This document shows, piece after piece, positions 4,575 to 63,236 of a stretch of 64,000 nt of DNA. Position numbers and translations under genes: made by a program. The stretch's first letter is position 1, and the number at the start of each line of letters is the position of its first letter. The DNA is taken from positions 25,277-89,276 of IMG/VR virus record IMGVR_UViG_3300042261_001117; one strand, 5' to 3'. Below the pieces are notes generated by a model. The model did not search any database, was not told the origin of the DNA, and worked only from the letters and a program-made list of their open reading frames with translations. The stretch is from a virus.

Positions 4575-4644
4575 CGGCGAGCCGCTAGCGCATGGGCGTG
4601 CGCTGGCGGCGGGTGCGGTTCCAGATCGCAACAGGGAGGAGCAC

Positions 4645-9737: not shown

Positions 9738-10122
9738 GCACAAGGCCATCACCACGAAGGGCGTCTCCATCGGCGGCGGGTGGTGGGAGTTGACTGCGAG
9801 CGCGCTGGACGACGACCGAAAGCCGCCGTTTCTGGCGCGCGTGTACGCGAACTCCTGGCTGATGGTCATGTGCTACGAGCGCTTCGGCGTCGAGTACGTC
9901 GGGCTGCGGCGGCATGACCGGAAGGAGTTCCAGTCCCCGTGGAGCGTGGTGCAGGAGATCAAGGAGCGCTTCTTCGCGGGCCGGTGCGCGGTGGAGTTCT
10001 ACCCCGCGCAGGACGACCTCGTGGACGACGCTCCGATGCGGTGGCTGTGGATGCTGCCGGATGACGCGCGACTCGGAGCGCTCGGGCTCGGGTGGGCAAG
10101 GGGTGGCGGAAGTCTCATGTAG
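9727..10122 (+). CDS. conserved phage protein (DUF7694-like)
   Basis: WSVVQEIKE...AVEFYPAQDDLVD...WLW pattern recalled from phage proteins. Confidence 0.55.
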   Translation: MKREHKAITTKGVSIGGGWWELTASALDDDRKPPFLARVYANSWLMVMCYERFGVEYVGLRRHDRKEFQSPWSVVQEIKERFFAGRCAVEFYPAQDDLVDDAPMRWLWMLPDDARLGALGLGWARGGGSLM

Positions 10123-10131
10123 GGGGCGACC

Positions 10132-10413
10132 ATGCGGATCGCGATTCTCTGCGTGCTGGTGGTGCTGGCTGCGTGCTCGCGCGGCAACTACTGCAAGGAA
10201 GCGAAGACCATCATGGACGACTGCGGCTTCGGGCCGTCGTCGGAATCGTCGACGGCGCTGCGGTCGGCGTGCGACGCCGGAGCGGCGGACGCGGTGATGC
10301 TCGCGAAGTGCTTGATCGTGGCGGACCGCTACGAGCAGACGCGCGGGTGCTCGCAGATGCGGTTCATGACGTGCGTCGAACTGGTGTCGCGAGCACGATC
10401 CGGCAGGCTGTGA
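10132..10413 (+). CDS. Cys-rich lipoprotein
   Basis: Hydrophobic signal with lipobox LAAC. Confidence 0.6.
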   Translation: MRIAILCVLVVLAACSRGNYCKEAKTIMDDCGFGPSSESSTALRSACDAGAADAVMLAKCLIVADRYEQTRGCSQMRFMTCVELVSRARSGRL

Positions 10414-10431
10414 TGGCCGGTCGAAACGGGC

Positions 10432-10461
10432 TTGACGGGAGCGGCGCGAACGGCGTAGCGT
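10432..10461 (+). promoter_or_regulatory. sigma70-like promoter of the replication operon
   Basis: TTGACG-N18-TAGCGT in an intergenic gap. Confidence 0.55.
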
Positions 10462-10465
10462 GTTC

Positions 10466-10566
10466 GTGCAACCGGCTCTGTTCACCAATCAAGCTCTCGC
10501 GCCCCCCGGTGGTGGCGACTCTTCGGAGCCGGTTGCACCCACCACCGGGGGCCACGCGAGTTTTGT
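10466..10566 (+). ncRNA. putative structured 5' leader (A-B-UUCG-A'-B')
   Basis: Two interleaved perfect 13-bp inverted repeats, a CTC-TTCG-GAG hairpin and a trailing TTTT. Confidence 0.55.
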
Positions 10567-10596
10567 GCGCTGGGCGTAGCGTGGCGAGGAGTGCGC

Positions 10597-11709
10597 ATGG
10601 GCGGCACTAGCTGGGTACGCATGGACGCAGCGTACGACGACCATCCGGACGTTCGGCGCGCTGGGCTTGAGGGTAGCGTGGTGTTTCAGGCGCTCGTGCG
10701 CAGATCGAAGCTGTTTGGCCTCGACGGCATCGTCAGCAAGAAGTACCTCGACGTGGAGTACCTAGCGGACGTGCTGAAAGCTCCACAGGACTTCATCCAG
10801 CGCGGGCTGGTGGCGTGCTTGCGCGTTGGACTGATCCGCGACGGCGATGGCGGCGTGACGATACCAGGGTGGGATCGCTTCCAGAGTCCCGACACGTTGC
10901 GGAAGCAGCGCTACACGGAACGGCACGGACGAGACGCAGCAGATGGTGCGCAGCAGGTTGATCCGTTCCTGTCCGTTCCAAGAACGGACGAGAACGGACG
11001 AGAACGGATTGGAACGGATTGTCCGTCTGACGTGACGGTACGTGACGAGACAGGACGTGACGAGACGCACGAGCACTGCGCGCGCGCGCGTACGCACGAG
11101 GATTCGACCCCAGCACCCGCCGCACCGACCACGCCGCCGCCTGATCCCGCGCGGCTCGCTGCGATCCGAAACGAGATGGCCATGGCGGACGCGCAGCGAG
11201 AAGCCGAGAGCGGCGTGCGTGTGCGCCCACTTCGCGTCGATCCGGAGCGCGAGGCCCGTGACGCCGCGTGGGCGGAAGAGATGGCGCTAGCGGCCAACGT
11301 CGCGCACGACGACGGCAAGATCCTCTCGGTCTACCAGCACTGGCTCGACTCCGCGGGTTTGCCTCCGCGCTGCATGTGCCCCGACGACCTGTACATGGGC
11401 AAGACGTTCCGACTGCTGGTGCTGGAGCGGCTGAGAGACGGGCTGACCTACGACGACATGAAGCGGGCGATCACGTCGTGCCACGGAAGCAAGCGGCATC
11501 AGGAGCGCGGCGTGTCGGGGTGGGGCGCTATCCTGCGGTCGCTCTCGACGGTGCAGGAGTTCATGGCAATCGCCAACGCGAAGGCCAAGCCGCAGCAGCG
11601 ATCGGGTAGGCTGTCTGACGAGGAATTCGCGAAGCGGTACGAGGAGCGCAAGGCGGAGAAGGCGCGGAACGAGGCGCTGCTGGCACAACACGGTCGGGGT
11701 CCGAGATGA
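10597..11709 (+). CDS. phage replication initiator (replisome organiser / O-like)
   Basis: N-terminal WVRMD...HPDV...L..GLI...IPGWDRFQ pattern, internal iterons and RDETGRDET linker. Confidence 0.7.
   Translation: MGGTSWVRMDAAYDDHPDVRRAGLEGSVVFQALVRRSKLFGLDGIVSKKYLDVEYLADVLKAPQDFIQRGLVACLRVGLIRDGDGGVTIPGWDRFQSPDTLRKQRYTERHGRDAADGAQQVDPFLSVPRTDENGRERIGTDCPSDVTVRDETGRDETHEHCARARTHEDSTPAPAAPTTPPPDPARLAAIRNEMAMADAQREAESGVRVRPLRVDPEREARDAAWAEEMALAANVAHDDGKILSVYQHWLDSAGLPPRCMCPDDLYMGKTFRLLVLERLRDGLTYDDMKRAITSCHGSKRHQERGVSGWGAILRSLSTVQEFMAIANAKAKPQQRSGRLSDEEFAKRYEERKAEKARNEALLAQHGRGPR
10961..11020. repeat. iterons, putative replication origin
   Basis: Four tandem 10-mers (AGAACGGACG x2, AGAACGGATT, GGAACGGATT) preceded by two inverted copies (ATCCGTTCCT, GTCCGTTCCA). 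Confidence 0.7.
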
Positions 11710-12407
11710 ACCAGACTCAATGGCGCACCCACTGGAACAGTTTGCTGATCGGGTACCAGCGACGAGACGCCAGCGAGGAAGAGGAGCTTCTGTACCTGGA
11801 GCACCTCGAGAAGTGGCAGCCGGAGATCGTCGCGGCTGCGGTAAACGCTGCACTGGAGGAGGAGTCGTACTTCCCGCGCATCCAGTCTCTGGTGTCGCGA
11901 TGCCAGCAGATCGAGCACGACGCCCGGCGGGAAGCTGCGAACTCAAGGCCACGACCGGCGGAGGAGTACGACGCGAACGCGCGCACGTACGCGTGCAGGA
12001 ACTGCCTCGACACGGGCATGATCGACTGCACGATTCCGCGCGGGAAGCATCTGATCGTCGGCATGGACGGGCGGCTGCGGTTCCGAGACGCGCGGTCGAC
12101 GTCGGTGACGTTCTACTCGAACTGCCGCGTGCGCTGCACGTGCGATCGTGGGCTGGCGAAGCCCGCGTCGTTCGGCGCGCTGTTCTCGCCGGTGATGTTC
12201 CGAGCGCTGGGCTGGTGGGCGAACAGGCAGCACGCGCACATCAACGCCATCCACGGCTTCCGGGTGTTCGCGTCGTCGGAGGAATACGTCGCGTGGGCGG
12301 AGGAGCAGGTTGGCAGGGTGGTGCCGGGCTCGCATCGAGCGCCGGATCGAGCGCCGGAGTATCAGGATCGGCGCGTGACCGACTTCGACAGCGAGGTGAA
12401 CTTCTGA
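11706..12407 (+). CDS. putative helicase loader-associated protein with Zn ribbon
   Basis: Coupled to initiator; YFPRIQSL motif and CRNCLDTG...CTC. Confidence 0.5.
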   Translation: MNQTQWRTHWNSLLIGYQRRDASEEEELLYLEHLEKWQPEIVAAAVNAALEEESYFPRIQSLVSRCQQIEHDARREAANSRPRPAEEYDANARTYACRNCLDTGMIDCTIPRGKHLIVGMDGRLRFRDARSTSVTFYSNCRVRCTCDRGLAKPASFGALFSPVMFRALGWWANRQHAHINAIHGFRVFASSEEYVAWAEEQVGRVVPGSHRAPDRAPEYQDRRVTDFDSEVNF

Positions 12408-13870: not shown

Positions 13871-14689
13871 ATGGCTGGGATCTACGAGCCTCGCGGGCGC
13901 GCACTGGAGTACAGCCCGCTGGCGCTCAACCTGTACAACGGCTGTGACCACGCGTGCTCGTACTGCTACAACCGGCGCATTTACCGGTCGAACTGGACGG
14001 CCGACGCGAAGCCCATGGCGTGGCTCACGCTCGACGCGCTGCAGAAGACGTGCGAGAAGTACGCGGGCAGCCTCGATCAGGTGCTGCTGTCCTTCGTCGG
14101 CGACCCGTACTGCGCGGCGGACGAACGCGAGCGCTGGACGCGCGTGGCGCTGGAAGCGCTGCTGCACAACCGCATTCCCGCTGCGGTGCTGACGAAGGGC
14201 GGCAATCGCTGTCTGCGGGACGTGGACCTGTTCCGCGCGTTCGGTCGGTCGATCATGGTCGGTGCGACCATCACCGGCATGGACGACCTCGAGTCCGGCG
14301 CCGCGACGAACCAGCATCGCTGCGACGTGCTCGATGAACTGGCTCGGTGCGGTGTGCCCACCTGGGCGTCGTTTGAGCCGGTCATCGACCCGGAGAAGTC
14401 GTTGGCGTGGCTGGCGTACGTGCTTGATCGCGGTGCGGTGTGGATGGTCAAGATCGGCAAGTGCAACCAGTGGGGCGGGTGCGACGACTCGAAGATCGAC
14501 TGGGCCAAGTTCCTGGCCAACGCGGTCGGCATCTGCGAGGAGTCGACGGTGCGGTACTACATCAAGGACTCGCTGTGGATCGCGGCGGGGCGGCCGGAGT
14601 TCGTGTACGTCAACCACGCGGTGGCGATGGACGACGGCCACCGCAACCCGCGGCTGTTCCAATCGGAGCCGTTCGGAAAGGTGGCATGA
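13871..14689 (+). CDS. radical SAM protein (SPL-like family)
   Basis: CDHACSYC cluster motif; GDPY, LTKG and SFEPVID. Confidence 0.85.
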   Translation: MAGIYEPRGRALEYSPLALNLYNGCDHACSYCYNRRIYRSNWTADAKPMAWLTLDALQKTCEKYAGSLDQVLLSFVGDPYCAADERERWTRVALEALLHNRIPAAVLTKGGNRCLRDVDLFRAFGRSIMVGATITGMDDLESGAATNQHRCDVLDELARCGVPTWASFEPVIDPEKSLAWLAYVLDRGAVWMVKIGKCNQWGGCDDSKIDWAKFLANAVGICEESTVRYYIKDSLWIAAGRPEFVYVNHAVAMDDGHRNPRLFQSEPFGKVA

Positions 14690-14985
14690 TGGCTGGCATC
14701 GCGATTCACTGCGGGCTGTCGGTGCGTGGCGCCATCCACCGCGCGTCTGCCACGAAGAAGCGCTCGTACCTGAAGGGCATGTTCAAGCACCCGAGCGGCA
14801 CGCGGTCTATGACGCCCGACGAGGCGTTCGAACTGCTGCTCGACGAGTTGTCGAAGGGACACGAGGTGCTTCCGTTCAGCGACTCGTGCAAGAACTGGGA
14901 CTGGAAGCACGGGTGCAGGTGCGCGCAAGTGGCGCGAGCGCAGGCAGAGCAGGTGTCCGGAAATTCCGGAGACGTGACGCCGTGA
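14686..14985 (+). CDS. hypothetical protein
   Basis: Overlaps with both neighbours; C-terminal CKNWDWKHGC. Confidence 0.5.
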   Translation: MMAGIAIHCGLSVRGAIHRASATKKRSYLKGMFKHPSGTRSMTPDEAFELLLDELSKGHEVLPFSDSCKNWDWKHGCRCAQVARAQAEQVSGNSGDVTP

Positions 14986-15869
14986 AGTCGCCAATCGTGT
15001 ACTTCGGCAAGAAGGCCTCGGTGGCCGACGTCATATGGGCGCGGCTCGGCGACGTGCGCCGGTACGTGGAGCCGTTCTTCGGGAGCGGCTCCGTGCTGCT
15101 CTCGCGCCCGGCGCTGCCGACGCGCGTCGAGATCGCCAACGACGACTCGGTCTACGTGGCGAACTTCTTCCGCGCGATGCAGTCAGACCCGGACGGCGTC
15201 GCGCGCGCTGCTCGATGGCCGAAGCACGAGTGCGAGATCGCCGCGCGACACCGCTGGCTGCTGGCCCGGCACGACGAACTGAAGCGCGACCTCATGGACA
15301 ACGCAGAGAAGTACGACGCGCAGGCGGCTGGATGGTGGCTGTGGGGCAACGCGGCGTGGCTCGGGAGCGGCTGGTGCACAGTCGGGCGGAACTGCAACCG
15401 GACGCAGGTTCCGCATCCGACGCCACAGGGGTACTGGGCCATCGACGACTTTGAGAGCTACGCCCGCGAGATGCAGGAGCGGCTGTTGCGGGTGATGTTC
15501 ATGTGCGGCGACTGGACGCGCGCGGTGACGACAGCGATGCTCGGGCTCCATGCTTCCAACTGCGTCACCGGCGTGCTGCTTGACCCGCCGTACGACGCTG
15601 GGACGGGCGCGTTCTACACGAGCGACCAGCGGTCGGTCTGGCACGACGCGCAGCGGTGGGCAATCGAGCACGGCGACGACCCCGGACTGCGGATCGTGCT
15701 CTGCGGGTACGACGGCGTCGGCGAGGCGATGCCGCCAGAATGGGAAACGGTGCACTGGGACACCGGAGGAGCCTACGGCACGGCAGAGAGCACCGCGAAC
15801 AAGGAGAACGGGAAACGCGAGGTGCTGTACTTCTCGCCGCACTGCAACCGCCAGATGGCGCTGTTGTGA
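14982..15869 (+). CDS. DNA adenine methyltransferase (Dam/D12 class)
   Basis: YFGKK, YVEPFFGSG, AND and DPPY. Confidence 0.9.
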   Translation: MKSPIVYFGKKASVADVIWARLGDVRRYVEPFFGSGSVLLSRPALPTRVEIANDDSVYVANFFRAMQSDPDGVARAARWPKHECEIAARHRWLLARHDELKRDLMDNAEKYDAQAAGWWLWGNAAWLGSGWCTVGRNCNRTQVPHPTPQGYWAIDDFESYAREMQERLLRVMFMCGDWTRAVTTAMLGLHASNCVTGVLLDPPYDAGTGAFYTSDQRSVWHDAQRWAIEHGDDPGLRIVLCGYDGVGEAMPPEWETVHWDTGGAYGTAESTANKENGKREVLYFSPHCNRQMALL

Positions 15870-18737: not shown

Positions 18738-18830
18738 TTGCGCTGGGCGCAGACGACGTGGTAATCTCCGACCGCTCCTTCCCCGCCCCTGCAGGACGTG
18801 ACGCCCCACGACACCGCAGGGGTTCTTTTT
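18738..18830 (+). promoter_or_regulatory. weak promoter followed by a terminator-like leader
   Basis: TTGCGC-N18-TAATCT, then CCCCTGC...GCAGGGG followed by TTCTTTTT just before the RBS. Confidence 0.45.
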
Positions 18831-18843
18831 GAGGAGGCATCCC

Positions 18844-20292
18844 ATGGCACGAAAGCGATCGGCAGCGGACCAGACGCCGCTGACCATCGACGACCTCGCA
18901 TCCGACCCCCGCAACCCTCGCACCATCTCGGAGACCGCGCTGGCTGGGCTTGACGTGTCGGTGACGACGTGGGGCGACCTGTCGGGCATCACGTTCAACC
19001 GCAGCAACGGGCAGTTGATCGGCGGGCACCAGCGGGTTCGTCTGCTGCGCGCAGCCGGAGCGCAGGTGCAGTACGACGAGCGGGGCCCGTTCCTGGTCGA
19101 CCCGCGCACCGACGAGCGCTTCCCGATCCGCGTGGTGGACTTCGACGAGGAGAACCACCTCGCGGCCAACCTCGCAGCGAACGCGCCAAACCTGCAGGGT
19201 GAGTTCTCGGTCGACGCGTTGCCGATCTTGGAGTCTCTGTCCGAAGACCTGCCGGACCTCTACGGGTCGCTCGGGTTTGACGCGCTGGCGGAGACGCTCG
19301 GCGCGCAGTTCAAAGAGCCCGACGCCGGTGGCCCGCGCACGACCACGCCCGGTGAGCACGACGACGACGTCCCGCCAGCGCCCAAGAATGTCGTCAGCCG
19401 GACGGGAGACATCTGGTGCATCGGGAAGCACAAGCTGATCGTCGCGGACGCGGGAGATCGCGCGGCCATCGCGAAGCTGATGGGGGGGGGCGTCGCGGAT
19501 CTGTGCTTCACCAGCCCGCCGTATGGCCAGCAGCGCGAGTACAAGAGCGGTGGCATCAACGACTGGGACAAGCTCATGCAGTCGGTGTGCGCGGCTCTTC
19601 CGATGGCGCAGGACGGGCAGGTGCTGGTGAACCTGGGGCTGATCCACCGCGACAACGAGTACATCCCGTACTGGGAGCGGTGGATCGAGTGGATGCGGTC
19701 GGAGGGGTGGCGGCGATTCGCGTGGTACGTGTGGGACCAGGGAGCGGGCATGCCCGGCGACTGGGGCGGTCGGCTGGCTCCGGCGTTCGAGTTCGTGTTC
19801 CACTTCAACAAGGCGTCGAAGCATCCGAACAAAATTGTGGAGTGCAAGAACGCGGGAAAGGTGTCGCATGGCGTGGGCGGCGACGGTCTTCGCGGCAAGG
19901 ACGGCGAGTTCGGGACGTGGCAGCATGGCGGATCGCCGACGCAGTCGCATCGCATTCCAGACTCTACGATCCGCATCGAGCGACACCACGGAGCGATCGG
20001 CGACGACATCAGCCACCCCGCGGTGTTCCCGGTGGCGCTTCCGATGCACGTGATCGAGGCATACTCGCAGCACGGAGACGTGCTGTACGAGCCGTTCTGT
20101 GGCTCCGGGACCACGATCATCGCGGCGGAGCGCACGGGTCGCGTCTGCCGCGCTGTCGAGCTAGCGCCGGAGTACGCGGACGTGACGCTGGCGCGGTTGT
20201 CGCAGGTGTTCGAGAACATCCAGATCACGCTCGAGTCGACAGGCGAGGCGTACGAGGTGGTCGCGGCTCAACGGGACGGAGGTGACGCGTGA
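18844..20292 (+). CDS. ParB-like domain fused to beta-class N4/N6 DNA methyltransferase
   Basis: PRNPRTI, GGHQR; TSPPY, HPAVFP and EPFCGSGTT. Confidence 0.9.
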   Translation: MARKRSAADQTPLTIDDLASDPRNPRTISETALAGLDVSVTTWGDLSGITFNRSNGQLIGGHQRVRLLRAAGAQVQYDERGPFLVDPRTDERFPIRVVDFDEENHLAANLAANAPNLQGEFSVDALPILESLSEDLPDLYGSLGFDALAETLGAQFKEPDAGGPRTTTPGEHDDDVPPAPKNVVSRTGDIWCIGKHKLIVADAGDRAAIAKLMGGGVADLCFTSPPYGQQREYKSGGINDWDKLMQSVCAALPMAQDGQVLVNLGLIHRDNEYIPYWERWIEWMRSEGWRRFAWYVWDQGAGMPGDWGGRLAPAFEFVFHFNKASKHPNKIVECKNAGKVSHGVGGDGLRGKDGEFGTWQHGGSPTQSHRIPDSTIRIERHHGAIGDDISHPAVFPVALPMHVIEAYSQHGDVLYEPFCGSGTTIIAAERTGRVCRAVELAPEYADVTLARLSQVFENIQITLESTGEAYEVVAAQRDGGDA

Positions 20293-21614
20293 GCGAGCAG
20301 AAGTTGCTGAGCATCGACGAACTGGCAAGCGCTCCATGGAACCCACGGACCATCAGTGATGCGGCACTGAGTGGGCTCGGCGGTTCGATCAAGGCGTTCG
20401 GCGACCTCGCTGGGATCGTCTGGAACGCTTCCAACGGGCAGTTGGTCTGTGGCCACCAGCGCATCAAGGTGCTGCGCGCCAAGGGTGCGACCATCGAGCA
20501 CGACGAACGCGGGCCGTTCATCGTGGACCCGGAGACCGGCGAGCGCTTCGGAATCCGCGTGGTCGAGTGGTCGGAGGATCGCCACGTGGCAGCATGCATC
20601 GCGGCCAACAACACCGCGATCACCGGCGAGTTCACCGCGGACACACTCCCCATGCTCCAGTCGATCGCGGACGACGATCCCGCGCTGTTCGCTGGTGCGG
20701 GCTTCGCACCGCTGCTCGAAGCGCTCGGGATGCAGTTCTCGGACACGCGGAAGGCCGGGCAGAGCGATCCGGACCAGGACGTCGCGCCACCTGCGCCCGA
20801 GGAGACCATCACCAAGACGGGCGACATCTGGCTGTGTGGGCCCCACCGCGTGGCGTGCGGCGACTCGCTGAAGGACGAAGACCTTGTGCGCCGCCTGTTC
20901 AACGGAGGGCTGGCGGACATGACCTTCACCGATCCGCCATACAATGTGAACTACGGCGAGACGATGAAAGACAAGCTTCGCGGGCCGAAGCACAAGAAGA
21001 TCGCCAACGACAACCTCGGCGCGGACTTCCCGGCGTTCCTGCTGGACGCGTGCAAGGTGATCATCGCGTGGACGAAGGGCGCGTGCTACGTCTGCATGTC
21101 GTCGTCGGAGTTGCACTCGCTGCAGAAGGCGTGGCTGGACGCCGGAGGGCACTGGTCGACGTTCATCATCTGGAAGAAGCACACGTTCACGATCGGCCAC
21201 GCTGACTACCAACGGCAGTTCGAGCCGATCCTCTACGGATGGGGCGAGGGCACGAAGCACTTCTGGTGCGGGGCCCGGGACCAGGGCGACGTGTGGGAGA
21301 TCGACAAGCCGAGCCGCAGCCCGCTGCACGCGACGACGAAACCGGTGGCGCTGGCGGAACGCGCGATCGTGAACTCCTCGAAGAGCCGCGACACGGTGTT
21401 CGAGCCATTCTGCGGGTCGGGCAGCACGCTGATCGCGTGCGAACGTACCGGGCGCATGGCGCGCACGTGCGAACTCGATCCCAGCTACGTGGACGCGCAG
21501 GTGGCGCGGTGGATGGCGTACTGCGGCGGGCAGGCGGTGCGCGAGTCGGACGGCTACAAGTTCCCGCTGGACGCTCCGGTGTTCAAAAAGGTCGCGGAGC
21601 AGAAGGATAAGTAA
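20289..21614 (+). CDS. ParB-like domain fused to beta-class N6 DNA methyltransferase
   Basis: PWNPRTI, CGHQR; TDPPY, HATTKP and EPFCGSGST. Confidence 0.9.
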   Translation: MSEQKLLSIDELASAPWNPRTISDAALSGLGGSIKAFGDLAGIVWNASNGQLVCGHQRIKVLRAKGATIEHDERGPFIVDPETGERFGIRVVEWSEDRHVAACIAANNTAITGEFTADTLPMLQSIADDDPALFAGAGFAPLLEALGMQFSDTRKAGQSDPDQDVAPPAPEETITKTGDIWLCGPHRVACGDSLKDEDLVRRLFNGGLADMTFTDPPYNVNYGETMKDKLRGPKHKKIANDNLGADFPAFLLDACKVIIAWTKGACYVCMSSSELHSLQKAWLDAGGHWSTFIIWKKHTFTIGHADYQRQFEPILYGWGEGTKHFWCGARDQGDVWEIDKPSRSPLHATTKPVALAERAIVNSSKSRDTVFEPFCGSGSTLIACERTGRMARTCELDPSYVDAQVARWMAYCGGQAVRESDGYKFPLDAPVFKKVAEQKDK

Positions 21615-22213: not shown

Positions 22214-23406
22214 ATGGACCGCGCACCGGAGCCGTTGCTGGACGAGTACAAGGGCTTCAAGCTCAAGCACAACTGGCAGAACCCATCGCCCATGGGCTGG
22301 ACGACGAAGGCCTACTACGACGGCGTCCTGATCACGCTGGACCGCGACGCGAACGATCCGCTGAAGTCGCAGGCGGGCGTGCTCATGGTGCTCGACACAC
22401 TGTGCTACTGGGCGGACAACGAGCGGAAGCACAGGGAGAAGTAGATGCGCCTCCAGATCGAGATCCCCGACGAAGAACTGGCGCGGTCGATCGCGGCGAA
22501 CCTACTGTCGCGGCGCGATGGCAGAGCGCTGCTAGACGACGTGCTTCGCCGCATCGGGCCAGCACTCGACGCCGCAGTGCTGAACGCCGCTCTCCCTCTG
22601 GTCGAACGCGCGACGCGCACGTCGGTTTCGCAGATCGTTGAAGTGCGCGCTCGGCGGATGATGGGTAAGGACCAGCCGCTCAAGACGGCTGTCGACGAAG
22701 CGGTGCGGAAGCGCGTCGAGCAGCTTCGGATCGGAGGTGGGCTGTGACCGAGTTCGTGAGCCCGCAGCACCTGCGCGACCTGTGGGACTGGTACGTGCGC
22801 GAGTGCCCCGACGTGAAGATCGACGGCAACCAGATGACCACGCCGGAGGGGTGGGTGCTGGTGCGACCGCCGGAGCCCGTCATCCCCGTCGTCGAGAGCG
22901 ACGCCATGCCGTTCGACGCGCTGCTGGCGATCTGTAGCGGTGGCCAGCCGGTGGGAGCGATCAAGAACCTCAAGTCGCCCAAGTTCGATCCGGAGACGGA
23001 AGCGGCGCTCGCCGCCATGGCGCGCGATGCCGACGAGCACTGCGACCGCACGGAACGACAGCGCTCCGCGGTGATGAGAGCGCTGTGGATGGAGTTCGGC
23101 GCGAACACGTGCACGCTCAACTACCTCGGCGGCCATGACTGCGGGCGGTCGATCATGGTGACGCCCGGTGGTGAACTCGCGTTCGACACGAGCGGGAAGT
23201 ACGCGCTGCGCCCGAAGATGACCACGACCAGCCGACAGGTCTTTGCCATCGCGAAAACCGCGCTCGAAGTGTTCCCGCGAGCGGAGATCGTCTGGTCGCT
23301 CGAGTGGTCGATGTCGGCGTACGAGCGCCGCGGGTTCGAAGAGATGCACGAAGTGCAGATGCGCGACCAGTTGTTCGACGCGATCGGAACGGAGGACCCG
23401 AAGTGA
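22214..23406 (+). other. three coupled hypothetical CDSs (22214-22444, 22445-22747, 22744-23406)
   Basis: Abutting or overlapping ORFs with RBS-like sequences. Confidence 0.55.
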
Positions 23407-23888
23407 TCTCATCCTTCCTCGCGCTCCCGTCCGTCGCTCTGGCGTTGCTGCTGGCGCCGGACGCACGGGTGTCCACGTACCGCGCACTCGAGGTCGCGCT
23501 GGCGTGCGAGGCGTCGTGCCGCGGGACGCTGGTGCGCCCGGATGAGTGTGTAGCGCTCGCGTACGTCGAGACGCGGTTCAGACCGGAGCGCGTGAGCGCG
23601 AAGGGGTGCATTGGTGTCGTCCAGGTTTCGGTCTGCAACTTGCTGGTCGCAGGTCGTCGCGTGAACGCACCGGCAGCGGGGCCATGGGACGTCCACTGCA
23701 TCGCTGGCGGGATCGATGCGGGTGTCCTGGCGGCAGATGCACTGAAACGCGCGCACGGGGCATTGTGGCCCCGATTTTACGGCTGTGGCACGAAGGCGGC
23801 GCGCAGGGGCGACAGAGCGTGTGTGCAGCACGAGATGCGCGTCTACCGCGCCATGAAGCGACTTGCTAGTACGGCGCCGGTGTCGTAA
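23403..23888 (+). CDS. lytic transglycosylase (SLT)-like protein
   Basis: Hydrophobic N-terminus; [23 protein letters not shown] resembles the SLT catalytic motif. Confidence 0.55.
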
Positions 23889-23891
23889 AAT
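23863..23891 (+). promoter_or_regulatory. sigma70-like promoter of the HNH gene
   Basis: TTGCTA-N17-TAAAAT. Confidence 0.6.
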
Positions 23892-23897
23892 GATCCC

Positions 23898-24007
23898 GCT
23901 TGTGACCGCTTGCTTCGGCAAGCACGACAACTTGGTTCCTCACGGTGGCGGTGGGCATCTTCCCTTCGGGGCAAGCGGCACAAGCAACCACCGCCCCGTG
24001 GGGAGCC
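23898..24007 (+). ncRNA. putative structured 5' leader (A-B-UUCG-A'-B')
   Basis: Interleaved inverted repeats of about 15 and 20 bp plus two cTTCGg hairpins. Confidence 0.55.
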
Positions 24008-24024
24008 TCGCTTACGGTGCTGAA

Positions 24025-24690
24025 ATGCCACGAAAAGCGCTATATGGTGACGATCGCCTGGGCGCTATCATAAACATGATTGCAGTAAAGTCGATTGTTA
24101 AAGACGGATGTCTGATATACACTGGTTGTAAGGATGGTAGGTACCCATACGCGGAGGTGGATGGTCGCCATATTGCATTAAGCAGACTGATATACGCGAT
24201 TGTTTTTGGCAACATACCGGATGGTATGTACGTATGCCATAGATGCGACAACAAGCGCTGTGTAAACCCGGATCACCTGTTCATTGGCACACCGGCAGAC
24301 AACACGCACGACATGATGAACAAAGGGCGTCAAAGATTCGATTTGTCGCGTCCCGGGCGGGCGGCGGAGGTCGGGAATATAGGGTGGAGCGGAAAAACGA
24401 CAAGGGGACAACGCATCGTTGAGTTATTACGCGACGGAGTTGAGCGAACAACGCGTAATGTTGCAGAGCATCTTGGGTGCGATGTGTCTGCGGCAAAGCA
24501 AAGTTTGAAACTAGAACAAGAACATGGGAGAATCAATGTAAGGAAAGTCGCGCTTGTTACAATAAAAACCGGCGCAGTGCCAATATCACGCACAAAAAAA
24601 CGCTATCGCGAGTCCAGTAGGCGCTTGGTTAGTATGTGGTCAATACACTGCAATACGCTTGCCATCCTACGACACCGGAAGGAGACCTGA
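24025..24690 (+). CDS. HNH homing endonuclease with C-terminal HTH
   Basis: [28 protein letters not shown]; clearly lower GC than flanks. Confidence 0.88.
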
Positions 24691-24691
24691 C

Positions 24692-25030
24692 GTGGAGTGC
24701 ACGCGCTGCGGGAACTGTTGCAAGACCTACCCGTGCCATCTCTGGCTTTATCAGTGGACGATGGACGGGGGTTCACCGCCGAAAGCTCCGCACGCGTGTC
24801 CGGATCTCCGCCCGATGGACGACGGCACGTGGATCTGCGGCGTGCTGGAGAACGCGCGGTTCCACGTCCAGATTGGCATGCGACCCGGCGGCTGGGACGG
24901 GCTGGTCGCTCGGCTGCTGCTGGTCGGAGACGGCTGCACCGCGACGGATCGCGTGCGGCGCGGGGAGCTTCTGCGCGAGGTTCCCGCTGACACGTTGCGG
25001 GCGATGACGATCGAAAGGGACGAGCCATGA
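24692..25030 (+). CDS. CxxCxxCC (YkgJ-like) Cys-cluster protein
   Basis: CTRCGNCC and CPDL motifs; AAGGAG RBS. Confidence 0.6.
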   Translation: MECTRCGNCCKTYPCHLWLYQWTMDGGSPPKAPHACPDLRPMDDGTWICGVLENARFHVQIGMRPGGWDGLVARLLLVGDGCTATDRVRRGELLREVPADTLRAMTIERDEP

Positions 25031-37841: not shown

Positions 37842-37914
37842 GGGCCAGTAGCTCAGTTGGGTGAGCGCCACCCTTGCAAGGTGGAGGTCGCCGGTTCAAT
37901 CCCGGTCTGGTCCA
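37842..37914 (+). tRNA. tRNA-Ala(TGC), CCA not encoded
   Basis: Full cloverleaf: acceptor GGGCCAG/CTGGTCC with G3:U70, anticodon arm CCACC-CTTGCAA-GGTGG, T loop TTCAATC, discriminator A. Confidence 0.95.
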
Positions 37915-39579: not shown

Positions 39580-40212
39580 ATGAAGACCGGCAAGCACCGC
39601 CAGGAGCGCGTCCACGATGGCTTCGGCGACTGGATGCGGAACCGCCGCGAGCACGCGAAGTACGGGCTCCGCGAACTGGCTCGGCTCATGCCCGCGTCTG
39701 CGTCGTACCTGTCGCGGCTCGAGACGGGCAGCGAGACGAGCCCGCCGAGCGAGGAGTTCCTTGATCGCTGGAGCGACTTCGTTGGCGTGCGCGCGTACGA
39801 TGCGTGCTGGCACGCGCGCCGCATTCCGCACAAGATCGCGCGATACCTGACCAGCAAGTGGGACGGTCCAGCGCTGGCCATCGAGAACAACGAACTGCGC
39901 GAGGCGCTGCTGGCGCTCTACCGGCTGCACTGCCCTGCGACGGCTGAAGACAAGCTGCGGTACGACACCGATACCAATGGGTGGAACGCGATGCTGTTCG
40001 GCGTGCTCAAAAGCGCGCAGAAGGTGCTGGGCATCGATCGCGAGGCGGAGTGGAAGGTCATCAACGAGGAGATGGACGCGCTGCAACGCGAAGACGACGA
40101 CGTCGACGAACTCGTTCCAGCGGTCGTTGCGTGCATTGAGTGTCAACACCGCGCCGAGTGCATTGATCGCGGAGTCGATCACGTTTGTCCACCACAGGAG
40201 GATGCAAGATGA
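39580..40212 (+). CDS. XRE-family HTH protein
   Basis: FGDWMRNRR...GLRELAR...SASYLSRLETG. Confidence 0.75.
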   Translation: MKTGKHRQERVHDGFGDWMRNRREHAKYGLRELARLMPASASYLSRLETGSETSPPSEEFLDRWSDFVGVRAYDACWHARRIPHKIARYLTSKWDGPALAIENNELREALLALYRLHCPATAEDKLRYDTDTNGWNAMLFGVLKSAQKVLGIDREAEWKVINEEMDALQREDDDVDELVPAVVACIECQHRAECIDRGVDHVCPPQEDAR

Positions 40213-40727
40213 AGATCGAGAAGCTGACGCCGGAGCGGGAAGCGCAGATCGCGGTCTACCGCGATCGGTACTTCGCGCTGGCGACGAGCACGGAGCGTGC
40301 GGACCGCCCGCGAGCGGAAGCAGCGGCGCGCGCCATGGCAGAGATCGCTGGTGTGAAGGTCAACAGCGTCGTGTGGGCGGCGACGCCGCAGGACGGCCAA
40401 CGCGAGTACGAGAATGCGTGGGCCTCGCTGCGGGCCTCGCTGGGGGCCTCGCTGCGGGCCTCGCTGTGGGCCTCGCTGTGGGCCTCGCTGTGGGCCTCGC
40501 TGCGGGACTCGCTGCGGGACAGCGACTGGACTGCATTCTACATCTACGCGCAGGAGCAACTCGCGGTCGTGTACGACGAGCGCAGCGCCAACGTGCTGCG
40601 GCTGCACAACGAAATCGCGGCGTCGTGCTTCGCGCTGTGGATCGCGCCCGGCACGGTCATCCTGTGCGAGCGGCCGACGAAGTGCGAGGTCGTGGGCGGG
40701 AAGCTCGTCAACGTCGAGTGGGAGTGA
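40209..40727 (+). CDS. tetrapeptide-repeat phage protein (DUF6745-like)
   Basis: KIEKLTPE...STERADR.RAE, ASLx repeats, CERP. Confidence 0.65.
   Translation: MKIEKLTPEREAQIAVYRDRYFALATSTERADRPRAEAAARAMAEIAGVKVNSVVWAATPQDGQREYENAWASLRASLGASLRASLWASLWASLWASLRDSLRDSDWTAFYIYAQEQLAVVYDERSANVLRLHNEIAASCFALWIAPGTVILCERPTKCEVVGGKLVNVEWE
40422..40517 (+). repeat. 12-bp tandem repeat x8
   Basis: G[CA]CTCGCTG[CGT]GG encoding ASLR/ASLG/ASLW/DSLR. Confidence 0.9.
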
Positions 40728-58475: not shown

Positions 58476-59924
58476 ATGGACACTCAGTTCGCAGATCGCG
58501 ACGTGCTGAACGGCGGCTTCCCGTCGACGGAACTCATGAGCATGTACCAGCAGGTCATGAAGGACATCATGGCCGGTCACCCGGTGCCCGGGTACACCGG
58601 CGGCGGCGCGCTCGGCCCGCTGATGCTGCAGGACATCTCCGGCACGCTGAGCGTCGCCGGGTACAAGACGAAGCACATCAAGTTCTGGCCGCGCGTCCAG
58701 AAGGCGCCCGACAAGCTGCACAACACCGTGCACGAGTTCACGCGCCAGCGCGACTACGGCGACGACCTGCCGTTCTACACGGCAGAGGGCGGCATCGGGC
58801 CCCGCGTCGACGTGTCGATCGAGAGGCTGTTCGCGAAGTGCCGGTTCATGAGCCACATCCGCCGCGTGTCGCACGCAGCGGGGCTCATCAACCCCATCAT
58901 CGGCCCGGCCAAGGACGCCGTCGAGAAGGCCAACTGGGACGCGTCCCGGTGGCAGCTTCGGCAACTCGAGCGCGGCCTGTTCTTCGGCGACTCGACCACG
59001 AACCCCGAGTCGATCGACGGGCTCAAGCACGCGTGCGAGATCGAGGGCAACGTCTACGACATGCAGGGCGCGGCCATCGACACCGACGCGCTCTACAACA
59101 TCACCGTGACGCTGATCCAGAACAAGTTCGGCGACCCCGACGCGATCTGGATGGACTACACGGCGAAGCAGGACCTCGCCAAGGTCTTCCACAACTACGT
59201 CAAGTACGACATCCAGCCCGGCGTGACCGCCGCCAACATCAACGGCGGTGTCAACGCGATCGGCCTGATCGGGCCCGAGAAGCTCGTCAAGTTCGAGCCG
59301 AACGTGTTCCTGGCGCCGGACGGCGCGCCCAGCGACACCGCGCTCGGCGCCGACCAGCCCGCGACGCCCACGATCAAGGTGCAGCCCGCGGCCACGGGCG
59401 ACGCCGCGTCGAAGTTCAACAGCGACGACGAGGGCAACTACTACTACAAGGTGGTGGCGTTCGGTTCCACCGGCGACAACGGCGGCGTGACCGGGTGCAG
59501 CGCGCCCGTGACGTCGAGCGTGGTCGCGGTGACCGAGGGCGACAAGGTCGCGCTGACGATCACGAAGCCCGGCAGCGACAGCGTGGTGTTCTACCGCGTG
59601 TACCGCACGAAGCCCGGCGGCTCGGTGTACTACAAGGTGTTCGACGTGCGGCAGTCGTACTCCGAGGGCGCGGTCGCCGACACGGTCATCACCGACTACA
59701 ACGAGTACCGGCCCGACACCACGACCATGTTCGTCGTCGAGCACGACCCCGAGATCTTCATCTGGCAGCAGTTGATGGGCTTCACCCGCATCCCGTTCGC
59801 GATGACCGAGCAGACGGGGCTGAAGCAGCCGTTCGCCTACGTGCTCTACGGCATGCTCGAGGTGATGGTCCCGTCGAAGATCTACATGATCAAGAACGTC
59901 GGGCGCGAGGTCGTGACCCTGTAG
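58476..59924 (+). CDS. major capsid protein (SPO1/Twort-like, with inserted beta-rich domain)
   Basis: NTVHEF, E.GLFFGD...DGL, FGDPDAIWM, YYYKVVA...YRVYR, C-terminal IKNV. Confidence 0.9.
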   Translation: MDTQFADRDVLNGGFPSTELMSMYQQVMKDIMAGHPVPGYTGGGALGPLMLQDISGTLSVAGYKTKHIKFWPRVQKAPDKLHNTVHEFTRQRDYGDDLPFYTAEGGIGPRVDVSIERLFAKCRFMSHIRRVSHAAGLINPIIGPAKDAVEKANWDASRWQLRQLERGLFFGDSTTNPESIDGLKHACEIEGNVYDMQGAAIDTDALYNITVTLIQNKFGDPDAIWMDYTAKQDLAKVFHNYVKYDIQPGVTAANINGGVNAIGLIGPEKLVKFEPNVFLAPDGAPSDTALGADQPATPTIKVQPAATGDAASKFNSDDEGNYYYKVVAFGSTGDNGGVTGCSAPVTSSVVAVTEGDKVALTITKPGSDSVVFYRVYRTKPGGSVYYKVFDVRQSYSEGAVADTVITDYNEYRPDTTTMFVVEHDPEIFIWQQLMGFTRIPFAMTEQTGLKQPFAYVLYGMLEVMVPSKIYMIKNVGREVVTL

Positions 59925-59933
59925 TGAACGGAG

Positions 59934-59963
59934 GCGGGCGCAGATCGCGAGGTCTGCGCCCGC
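59934..59963 (+). terminator. GNRA-capped hairpin after the capsid gene
   Basis: GCGGGCGCAGATC-GCGA-GGTCTGCGCCCGC; no U tract. Confidence 0.55.
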
Positions 59964-62442: not shown

Positions 62443-63236
62443 GCGCAGAAGTAGAAGCGCCGTTCACGCGGGAAGACCTGCTGCTGGCGTTCCGCGCCAC
62501 GCGTGCGGACCTGTCTGCGTGGGTGGCGCAGGTGGCGTGGGACGCTCACCGCCAACTGACAACGCTGGCCCAGCAGCGGCTCAAGACGTCGCTCCGCGAC
62601 TACCAAGAGGGCATCCAGCCGGTGGTCGAGAACGGCATGAGCGCGTCGTTCTCGCTGGTGGGCTGGCTGCCGAACGCGGTGGAGTGGGGCTGCGAGCCGT
62701 ACGACATGCGGACGACGCTGCTGCACGGTCCGAACGCGCAGGTCGTTCCGCGTGGGCAGCCCGGCATCCACGATGGCAAGAAGGGGCGCTACCGGTCGAT
62801 CCCGTTCCGCCACTACACGCCGGGATCGAGTGGGTACGAGGGTTCGGTTATGGGGATGCCGTACGAGCAGATGCTGGGGCCCGACGCCGCGCGGAAGCTC
62901 GGGCAGCAGGTCTACAATACGATGCGAGCGCGAGTGGCCGCAGCGAAGGCGAGCGGCTCCGCAAAGACGGTGCGTCTGCCAGCGTCTGCCGGTGGCCCGC
63001 TGCTTCGCCCGCACCACTCGACCGGCATCTACACCGGAATGGTCCGTCCGGAGCGCGCGTACAAGGGCACAACGCAGGGCTTCTACCAGACGTTTCGCAC
63101 CATCTCGGACGGCAACCCGGTGGGGTGGATGCACCCGGGCATCGAGCCGCAAGGGCTGATGATGGCCACGGTGTCGTACCTCGAGCAGACGGCGGGAGCC
63201 ACGCTCGTGGAGATCATGACCGCAGGTGACGCATGA
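62439..63236 (+). CDS. putative neck / tail completion protein
   Basis: PNAVEWG..PYDM, IPFRH, TFRTISD and WMHPG; synteny. Confidence 0.65.
   Translation: MSAEVEAPFTREDLLLAFRATRADLSAWVAQVAWDAHRQLTTLAQQRLKTSLRDYQEGIQPVVENGMSASFSLVGWLPNAVEWGCEPYDMRTTLLHGPNAQVVPRGQPGIHDGKKGRYRSIPFRHYTPGSSGYEGSVMGMPYEQMLGPDAARKLGQQVYNTMRARVAAAKASGSAKTVRLPASAGGPLLRPHHSTGIYTGMVRPERAYKGTTQGFYQTFRTISDGNPVGWMHPGIEPQGLMMATVSYLEQTAGATLVEIMTAGDA

Follow-up and report, generated by a model that had tools for sequence, protein, structure and literature searches.

The leader in front of the HNH gene

The stretch of DNA analysed here, called the window in the following, comprises the last 64 kb of the 89,276-bp virus record IMGVR_UViG_3300042261_001117, which is classed as linear by IMG/VR and estimated by CheckV to be ~59% complete. 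The phage has a GC content of ~67%, its open reading frames (ORFs) that pass a filter on third-position GC (GC3) lie nearly all on the + strand, and the window carries terminase, portal, capsid and SbcC-like genes together with two ParB-methyltransferase genes. In front of an HNH_3 homing-endonuclease gene lies the element examined here, E2, whose four segments follow one another in the order A, B, A' and B' and can thus form two interleaved helices, A:A' and B:B', with a UUCG mini-hairpin abutting A' (Table 1). We consider it probable, at roughly 0.85, that E2 is an RNA leader of the sense strand that goes untranslated and sets in at a sigma-70-type transcript start, and that it is one member of a small family, undescribed so far, of which this genome has two copies and another phage lineage one.

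The segment boundaries proposed for E2 in the initial annotation, including the TAAAAT box and the local hairpin GCTTGC-TTCG-GCAAGC, all proved correct on direct reading of the sequence. Helix A:A' amounts to 15 bp with one bulged A (duplex energy -25.9 kcal/mol) and B:B' to 20 bp that include two G-U pairs and are interrupted by a single bulged U (-41.1 kcal/mol), the leader having a GC content of 66%. The putative promoter TTGCTA-17-TAAAAT shows 9 of 12 matches, and the scan of 23500-24800 that detected it returned 4 sites where 0.6 were expected; TAAAAT at 23886-91 is the sole exact copy on the + strand of the genome. From this promoter geometry we infer that the E2 transcript starts at arm A. 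Several other identities were considered for E2 and rejected: an antisense promoter (there is no more than a 9/12 site at 24094-24067, and the G-U pairs favour the sense strand), an HDV-like ribozyme (both a P4 and a catalytic strand are missing between A' and B'), a cruciform or inversion site at the DNA level (G-U pairs are present and the arms are too close together), and a stimulator of -1 frameshifting or read-through (the frames at E2 are unsuitable, and E3, a third interleaved pair described below, has no preceding slippery site). A group I intron carrying the HNH gene was likewise rejected, there being no matches to intron models and the flanking ORFs being separate genes.

Table 1. 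Positions of the leader elements, associated genes and further features in the window.
Feature	Position	Strand	Remarks
E2: -35-like hexamer TTGCTA	23863-23868	+	From promoter scan; aligns with TTGACG of E1 and L018
E2: -10-like hexamer TAAAAT	23886-23891	+	Includes the stop codon TAA (23886-88) of the gene upstream
E2: helix arm A	23898-23913	+	Begins at the 7th nt past the -10 hexamer, the predicted transcript 5' end
E2: local competitor hairpin GCUUGC-UUCG-GCAAGC	23908-23923	+	Occupies the 3' half of A; present in the minimum free energy fold
E2: connector L1	23914-23933	+	A/C-rich; connectors of E1 and L018 alike in composition
E2: helix arm B	23934-23954	+	3' end bears the conserved G-rich core UGGCGGUGGG
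E2: cUUCGg mini-hairpin CCC-UUCG-GGG	23962-23971	+	Final G is the first base of A'
E2: helix arm A'	23971-23985	+	
E2: AA spacer	23986-87	+	
E2: helix arm B'	23988-24007	+	Core CCACCGCC; 2 nt past A'
HNH_3 homing-endonuclease gene	24025-24690	+	Pfam HNH_3 4.1e-11; PHROG endonuclease families
E1: promoter-like region TTGACG-N18-TAGCGT	10432-10461	+	Read from sequence
E1: sister leader	10466-10564	+	A 10466-80, outer stem 10496-501, B 10503-15, CUC-UUCG-GAG 10519-28, A' 10524-38, B' 10539-51, outer stem 10555-60, then UUUU
Gene behind E1, probable replication initiator	10597-11709	+	Weak PHROG 16167 match, 6.3e-4
E3: third interleaved pair	62457-62546	+	A 62457-72, B 62486-500, A' 62514-29, B' 62532-46
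tRNA gene	37842-37914		Rfam tRNA, 64.7 bits; sole Rfam match of the window

The most likely start codon of the HNH gene is ATG 24025 (MPRK...), 17 nt past B'. Its frame is open from ATG 23890 onwards, and a 266-aa product is on record for the contig (P0001); translation of the region from 23863 or 23890 had also been raised in the initial annotation as the alternative to a structured RNA. The data speak against it. Across the 116 other homologues, coverage of the 266-aa query nowhere exceeds 65%, and among 9 homologues that were aligned, P0013, P0014 and P0018 start near ATG 24025, one of them as MPRGG, the rest having unrelated extensions. Third-position GC in the HNH frame is 0.61 over 23900-24049, compared with 0.78-0.98 in the GC3-filtered ORFs, which means that a coding signal of this kind is absent. 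In addition, the alignment of E1 with L018, the two relatives of E2 introduced below, contains indels of 1 nt and 2 nt; these disrupt the frame, and a leader peptide was rejected on the same grounds. The 266-aa annotation probably includes 45 surplus codons that belong to the leader. Another frame contains a short ORF, running from GTG 24017 to TAA 24071-73, that ends 2 nt before an internal ATG of the HNH frame (24076) and is probably meaningless if the gene starts at 24025.

GC content dips over the HNH gene, to 55.5% in the bin 24001-25000 versus ~66% on both sides, with 150-nt windows across 24000-24650 going down to ~45%. Since the leader itself is at 66%, the low-GC HNH cassette looks like an insertion behind a pre-existing leader of the phage backbone, which E2 most likely served, to judge from composition, before the cassette arrived.

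Chance expectation and relatives of the leader

Every interleaved helix pair of the 89,276-bp genome was listed with a helix finder that scores Watson-Crick pairs 1, G-U pairs 0.5 and bulges or mismatches -3, with a span of at most 140. E2 is the top pair genome-wide (15.5/16, A'-B' gap 2), and the interleaved pair of its sister element E1 (10466-10551) scores 14.5/13 at gap 0; after the three standout pairs E2, E3 and E1, the next best at a gap of at most 4 has a weaker helix of no more than 10. The concern that shuffled sequences of the same composition might often yield such stems turned out to be unfounded: 40 block-wise dinucleotide shuffles gave a mean of 0.05 pairs per genome with both helices at 13 or above (maximum 1) versus 3 observed, and at an A'-B' gap of 3 or less the best shuffle score was 11.5 (n = 40), the total helix count being unenriched (291 versus a shuffle mean of 273). 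Because shuffling breaks codon structure, we also scanned a real-sequence control of 2,246,150 strand-bases at 60% GC or above that had been fetched by other searches of this analysis. It contained no pair with both helices at 14 or above and a gap of at most 3; at 13 or above, three pairs were found, two of which represent one tandem-repeat artefact and the third a weak, long, imperfect pair. The minimum free energy (MFE) of 23889-24020 is -63.7 kcal/mol (z = -3.61), with 0 of 200 shuffles folding equally well; E1 is not significant by MFE alone (z = -1.70, 16 of 200 shuffles). When the minus strand was scanned, E2 was lost owing to its G-U pairs and only the all-Watson-Crick E1 survived, so that the E2 fold appears specific to the sense RNA. 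E2 is far outside chance, which does not hold for E1 and the pair at 62457 on score alone.

The initial annotation had described E2 as a counterpart of the leader at 10466, alike in element order, in the hairpin abutting A' and in the GGTGG/CCACC junction, and different in the sequences of its helices. This description was confirmed, and alignment now adds kinship to likeness. E2 aligns with E1 from the promoter to the cUUCGg hairpin, and so it does with L018, a locus retrieved by the descriptor search that the initial annotation had proposed. The first descriptor combined features common to E1 and E2 (GGTGG, a CYC-TTCG-GRG hairpin and CCACC) and matched 16 IMG/VR loci, 2 of which, L010 and L018, have the interleaved architecture; the two are identical across the element and lie on contigs of 70.8 and 20.3 kb. 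L018 shares 78% nucleotide identity with E1 from the TTGACG -35 box through the entire element, while UGGCGGUGGG and CCACCGCC are contained in both E2 and L018. E1 and E2 are the only sites of the core pattern GGYGGUGG/cUUCGg/CCACCRCC in this genome, and the 70.8-kb contig (G003) has a single one. The similarity includes the promoters, as the -35 hexamers and the -10 elements (TAnnnT in E2, TAGCGT in E1, TATCTT in L018) fall into matching columns of the alignment, and helix A begins 5-7 nt past the aligned -10 in all three copies. At L018 the promoter reads TTGACG-18-TATCTT and was found by the scan (1 site versus 0.0 expected).

All three copies are built alike. Helix A:A' comprises 13-15 bp and differs in sequence in every copy, the connector L1 measures 16-22 nt and is rich in A and C, the 3' strand of the cUUCGg mini-hairpin continues into A', and A' and B' are separated by 0 (E1), 1 (L018) or 2 nt (E2). 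In E1 and L018, an outer stem CUCGCG/CGCGAG extends B:B'. The family spans 100-110 nt, and promoter plus leader make up a module of ~145 bp. Across the 28 pairs of the helices compared between E1 and L018, 98.2% of cells are paired, and 4 pairs of A:A' and 2 pairs of B:B' have changed on both sides, with no one-sided change; in a control in which the 3' partners were slid by 1-3 columns, 34-50% were paired and no double change was seen. The observed covariation was equalled by 8 of 500 shuffles. A covariance model, R1, trained on E1 and L018 with B:B', the outer stem and the mini-hairpin as pairs and with A:A' left unpaired, recovered E2 at full length with 18.8 bits (rough E = 0.085); the next match in 187,646 bases reached 15.4 bits, training sequences and their reverse strands being excluded from this ranking.

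Some observations have to be held against the leader reading. The covariation comes from one pairwise comparison plus one more diverged paralogue, together two phage lineages. The scan tool called 0 sites in 10000-11000, where the E1 promoter was read by eye; that promoter falls below the threshold because its -10 hexamer matches at only 3 of 6 positions. Furthermore, the sequencing runs listed as carrying the phage are 3 DNA runs (freshwater/lake metagenomes), with no RNA run among them. Among the differences and joints listed for the contigs of these runs, none fell inside E1 or E2 (346 further differences being outside this list); joints across the HNH region had flanks of only 20-21 nt and were disregarded. 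On balance, the sequence comparisons indicate that E1 and E2 are homologous and belong to a family of promoter-coupled leaders that another phage carries as well, both helices being backed by compensatory changes.

The genes behind the leaders have changed more than the leaders themselves. Downstream of L018, a 75-aa Zn-finger ORF is followed by a clear replication initiation protein (PHROGs 2149, 1408, 16167) and, as third gene, a possible primase on reading of its sequence. The initiators behind E1 and L018 can hardly be aligned (E = 0.004), and this phage has only 7 proteins in common with the phage of contig G003; with 78% identity between the leaders, the promoter-leader cassette is thus better conserved than its cargo. 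For the L018 initiator, 44 homologues were found, the closest at 90% and 57% identity; its nearest relatives (P0120, P0121) come from freshwater assemblies of Logan and ENA. The product of the gene 5' of E1 (10132-10413) is 93 aa long and has a signal of the lipoprotein type (MRIAILCVLVVLAAC), and the equivalent position at L018 is taken by an unrelated ORF (11182-11802), HTH-regulator-like on reading alone, so the cassette also has different upstream neighbours. The proposal of the initial annotation, a recurring cis-regulatory RNA class placed on genes in need of tight control, therefore holds in its first half, homology and compensatory changes arguing for a recurring structured class; its second half finds no support, as the module is more conserved than the genes behind it and gating of a ribosome-binding site (RBS) is unsupported too (see below). 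Inside the gene behind E1, within 10915-11073, there is an iteron array (10961-11019). It consists of GAACGGA units at a spacing of 10 bp (10981-11018), opposed by a pair of inverted TCCGTTC copies (10962-10979); a further repeat set (11028-11067, spacing 10-15 bp) and a GC palindrome (11077-11098) follow, and the region looks like a lambda-O-type origin in its sequence.

Further members were sought with descriptor scans, each filtered by the helix scanner, in which the genome contigs were those of 185,579 species genomes. Metagenome contigs (JGI) gave 17 loci and 0 members, a further IMG/VR scan 21 loci with L010 and L018 again as the 2 members, and a genome-contig scan 27 loci with 0 members (best 10.0). 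A scan of IMG/VR (14 loci) and genome contigs (at least 120 loci) yielded at least 134 matches, with only L010 and L018 as members among the matches listed and the others at 9.5 or below; another IMG/VR scan with at least 119 loci and at least 122 matches had 0 members among the matches listed (best 9.0). Loci L046-L056 were assessed solely through the whole-locus helix scan, and only where GC was at least 60%. One similar-looking candidate, L211, was rejected as it sits inside a glycosyltransferase gene. The family appears rare in the collections searched. With Rfam 15, no family, riboswitches included, reached its gathering threshold on the E1, E2 and L018 regions at E <= 10; sub-threshold matches (microRNA precursors, a CRISPR repeat, small nucleolar RNA, Actino-pnp) scored 12-18 bits, far under the gathering scores.

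The phage collection contained no DNA nearly identical to 23000-25000, and a tblastn search of it with the upstream 159-aa protein gave zero matches; for the capsid protein, SPO1-like phages were the sole matches there, below 60% identity (27-29% in the rows listed). IMG/VR scans with the protein upstream of E2 and with the initiator returned no relatives, and those with the E3 gene and the capsid returned one each, L001 (44%) and L002 (69%). The L001 and L002 contigs are without a clear interleaved element (G001, best pair 12/12 at gap 6; L002, minimum below 10).

The third standout pair, E3, scores 13.5/13.5 at gap 2 with 8 G-U pairs and occupies codons 7-36 of a virion-module gene (PHROG 16819) whose ATG overlaps the preceding stop (ATGA). 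No promoter was found at E3 by scan, nor a conserved core, a UUCG hairpin or a covariance-model match, and its MFE fold is the A:A' state, unlike in E1, E2 and L018. The homologous gene in L002 (protein 47% and capsid 69% identical) has a different N-terminal sequence without the E3 structure. From the real-sequence background, ~0.1 E3-like pairs are expected per genome strand. E3 is not homologous to E1 and E2; it is possibly due to chance (p about 0.1), and its membership in the family is doubtful.

Three further observations concern the genome at large. A 180-aa protein (40185-40727) with an internal run of ASL(R/W)ASL repeats and no Pfam or PHROG match is 64% identical to one encoded at 58618-59112 of G003, the sole other leader-carrying phage lineage; being among just 7 proteins common to both leader phages, it is a candidate partner of the leader. 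At 18829-21614 and 14262-15869 lie two adjacent paralogous genes that match ParB-like and DNA-methyltransferase families (PHROG 498) and, in addition, a gene for a D12-class adenine methyltransferase, the C-terminal part of the latter showing 35% identity to the gene immediately 5' of the leader in G003. Perfect GC-rich hairpins of 13-16 bp stand directly 3' of genes at 2543-2584, 4581-4610 and 59934-59963, the last one 3' of the major capsid gene; none has a U-run, and U-poor hairpins may serve the host for ending transcripts or for stabilising their 3' ends.

Folding order and candidate functions

In a nested-fold simulation of E1, E2 and L018, A:A' constitutes the MFE structure once A' has been made, at a transcript length of 68-81 nt, and is overtaken by B:B' 15-22 nt later, the direct refolding barrier from the A-state being 26-32 kcal/mol in all three. 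This folding order and barrier suggest that the nascent RNA should be caught with A:A' formed, in which case B' must, according to the model, pair with B inside the A:A' loop as a pseudoknot or stay free. The RBS seems indifferent to the choice between the two folds: its predicted accessibility in the A-state and B-state is 0.35 and 0.34 for E1, 0.51 and 0.51 for E2 (unpaired probability from -15 to +5), and 0.32 and 0.40 for L018. In addition, the distance from leader to start codon varies (17, 35 and ~60-75 nt), and the genes downstream differ as well, comprising the HNH gene, an initiator, and a Zn-finger ORF followed by an initiator. Equal or similar accessibility and varying distance do not support RBS gating of the T-even type.

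Two helices without common nucleotides that both covary are the usual signature of a pseudoknot. In the present case, the stems measure 13-20 bp (stem 1, 13-15 bp), loop 2 has 8-16 nt and loop 3 only 0-2 nt. By our geometric estimate there is a sole coaxial arrangement, with A'B' as a continuous strand, the 5' end of the RNA abutting the 3' end of B as a nick, and the connector running back along both helices. This arrangement would explain why A sits at +1, why A' and B' abut and why the helices are interleaved, for which reason we rank a role in burying the 5' end first. During transcription, A:A' would form first and pair the 5'-terminal nucleotides of the transcript; B' would emerge directly behind A' and pair with B held in the A:A' loop, B:B' then abutting the 5'-terminal base pair. 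The outcome would be a strained pseudoknot, or an A:A' fold caught in a kinetic trap should B:B' fail to form completely. The abutment of A' and B' may stack B:B' on the terminal pair, with a possible effect on RNA stability. With its 5' end buried, the leader would act as an autonomous module that protects or insulates the transcripts of its own promoter, whatever the gene downstream, and not as an RBS gate. Work on ompA and papA mRNAs reportedly points to 5'-terminal stems as protective. Although ranked first, this reading of the leader as a promoter-coupled device for transcript protection, with A:A' pairing the 5' end and B:B' locking it as a strained pseudoknot or kinetic trap, is a tentative one.

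A number of findings caution against it. In nested MFE folds of the full element, B:B' without A:A' is favoured by 10-19 kcal/mol, and by 15-22 kcal/mol in slightly longer stretches of E1 and E2. A loop 3 of 0-2 nt combined with long stems makes a classical H-type geometry impossible by our own estimate, and in the coaxial model, estimated likewise, L1 (16-22 nt) must span 28-35 bp and L2 (8-16 nt) 13-15 bp. End protection could be had from a simple 5' hairpin, so that the conserved core of B hints at a bound factor, and the U-run after B' in E1 fits a terminator better.

The terminator idea leads to the strongest rival, unlikely on our estimate though it is, in which B:B' acts as a terminator-type hairpin and A:A' as a topological anti-terminator, such that a factor occupying A within a window of ~20 nt would divert folding to B:B' and stop transcription; candidate triggers of such a kinetic attenuator are the local hairpin of E2, a protein on the A/C-rich connector, or the speed of RNA polymerase. 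The energetics suit it well, B:B' being the thermodynamic winner and A:A' the winner on the nascent chain, with a barrier of 26-32 kcal/mol in between, and so do the strong competing hairpin in arm A of E2 and the UUUUGUG 3' of the extended B:B' stem of E1. The U-run is unconserved, however: the stem is followed by CUUGCGUG in L018 and by UCGCUUAC in E2, with ~3 U in the next 8-9 nt. Gene-end hairpins of this phage, such as those at 2543-2584 and 59934-59963, lack U-runs as well, which may mean that the host relies on U-poor terminators. No + strand terminator was called at E1, E2 or L018, for which the 3-8 nt loop limit of the scan is part of the cause. Unlike in known attenuators, the helices have no nucleotides in common, and the position of A at +1 goes unexplained. 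We think it less probable still that the core of the folded leader binds elongating polymerase, alone or with a factor, and renders it resistant to pausing and termination in the manner of put or nut RNAs. Two related copies per genome, each directly behind a promoter that heads a co-directional gene block, are in line with this notion, as is a sequence-conserved core within a drifting structure, which fits a bound partner; E1 and L018 also contain a stretch, GCUCUGUUC..ACAA, that may resemble boxA. That stretch lies partly inside helix A, though, and is absent from E2, put is a tandem of stem-loops where the present helices are interleaved, and no Q-type (PF06530, PF03589) or NusG-like (PF02357) protein was found in the ~59%-complete record.

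The remaining explanations are harder to reconcile with the data. A cis-encoded antisense RNA similar to c4 or CI would require A-L1-B to be excised and to act in cis and in trans on A'B', providing dose feedback on the initiator operon, with A:A' setting the specificity and preventing cross-talk between E1 and E2. The order A, B and then adjacent A'B' matches the c4 arrangement, A:A' is the most variable part while being perfectly matched within each copy, and 2 of the 3 copies head replication-initiator operons; we nevertheless find this improbable, given that Rfam C4 gave no match at E <= 10 on E1, E2 or L018, that the A'B' target, located 17-75 nt ahead of start codons, is not an RBS and that intramolecular pairing would outcompete pairing in trans. 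Control of HNH translation by RBS sequestration, as for T4 I-TevI, segB and mobE, has the appeal of being a documented restraint on homing endonucleases in T-even phages (PMC2988022), and B' does contain GGGGAG. But B' ends at 24007, 17 nt before ATG 24025, with GGGGAG at a distance of 20 nt from this start codon; positions -15 to +5 have an unpaired probability of 0.51 in either state, and the same leader heads non-nuclease genes, all of which leaves little room for this mechanism. We give least weight to the possibility that the region is either a translated N-terminal extension of the HNH protein from ATG 23890, in spite of the open frame and the 266-aa product on record, or a functionless chance arrangement of GC-rich repeats: homologue starts, third-position GC and indels speak against the former as set out above, and the latter is excluded by the shuffles, the real-sequence controls and the covariation.

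The preferred reading, protection of the transcript by a locked 5' end, can be taken one step further. In what might be called an end-burying pseudoknot, the 3' strand of the mini-hairpin, A' and B' would serve as one strand that aligns the mini-hairpin, A and B into a nicked, quasi-continuous helix; alternatively, the element could be a purely topological switch, whose helices exclude each other without having nucleotides in common. We regard this extension as doubtful. If the end-burying form were true, the 5' triphosphate would become an internal nick, beyond the reach of 5'-end-dependent RNases and sensors, and the leader would represent a phage counterpart of exonuclease-resistant RNAs in the form of a portable promoter-plus-leader cassette. 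Simultaneous formation of both helices would amount to an unusually long-stemmed pseudoknot hiding an RNA 5' end, mutual exclusion to a switch that works by topology and not by common sequence. Candidate functions are those of a locked pseudoknot that protects the 5' end, of a kinetic attenuator and of an RNA that modifies the polymerase; RBS gating is unlikely.

Comparison with known systems

HK022 put RNA binds the beta' zinc-binding domain of RNA polymerase and suppresses pausing and termination. A published account puts putL immediately behind PL and putR ~270 nt past the start of PR, gives a length of ~70 nt and similar sequences for the two, and depicts put as two tandem stem-loops without describing a pseudoknot (PMC9378689). 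On that description, E1 and E2 resemble put in being short structured leaders of early operons that occur in two related copies per genome and are apparently indifferent to the gene downstream, and putL, too, is located directly behind its promoter. They differ in that ~70 nt of tandem stem-loops contrast with a leader of 100-110 nt made of interleaved 13-20-bp helices.

As for protection of 5' ends, the known bacterial stabilisers are simple hairpins, and the exonuclease-resistant RNAs (xrRNAs) are elements of eukaryotic viruses with a three-way junction and a ring. The stem-loops of ompA and papA have in common with the leader a helix formed by the extreme 5' end of the RNA, and differ as simple hairpins; the flavivirus xrRNA pseudoknots share the topological shielding of the 5' side and differ by the three-way junction and the ring.

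In c4, the order is a', b' in the RNA, with a2 and b2 adjacent downstream in the same operon. The genes c4, icd and ant form one operon under the control of the C4 antisense RNA (PMC8198154). P1/P7 c4 and P4 CI are like the leader in that two separated sense-encoded segments pair with two adjacent downstream segments and compensated changes set the specificity, whereas the leader has much longer complementarities, a target other than an RBS and no Rfam match. T-even phages restrain homing endonucleases by stable RBS-hiding hairpins and internal promoters (PMC2988022). The hairpins of I-TevI, segB and mobE resemble E2 as very stable RNA structures upstream of a free-standing HNH gene with a promoter nearby; they contain the RBS, however, whereas E2 ends 17 nt upstream with RBS access unchanged, and its leader type is common to non-nuclease operons.

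Classical pseudoknots, among them the rep activator pseudoknot of IncI/IncB plasmids, provide a parallel for two non-overlapping interleaved helices in front of a replication-initiator gene. H-type pseudoknots of the classical kind have stems of ~3-10 bp, a loop 2 of ~0-1 nt and a loop 3 whose length allows it to span stem 1. The leader departs from these dimensions with stems of 13-20 bp, a loop 2 of 8-16 nt and a loop 3 of 0-2 nt. Its architecture, two long non-overlapping interleaved helices with compensatory support that are tied to the exact transcript start, is unmatched in Rfam, and the module is compact and apparently portable between operons. Among structured phage leaders that act on their own transcripts, each of nut, put and c4/CI brought to light a new mode of control over transcription or the fate of RNA.

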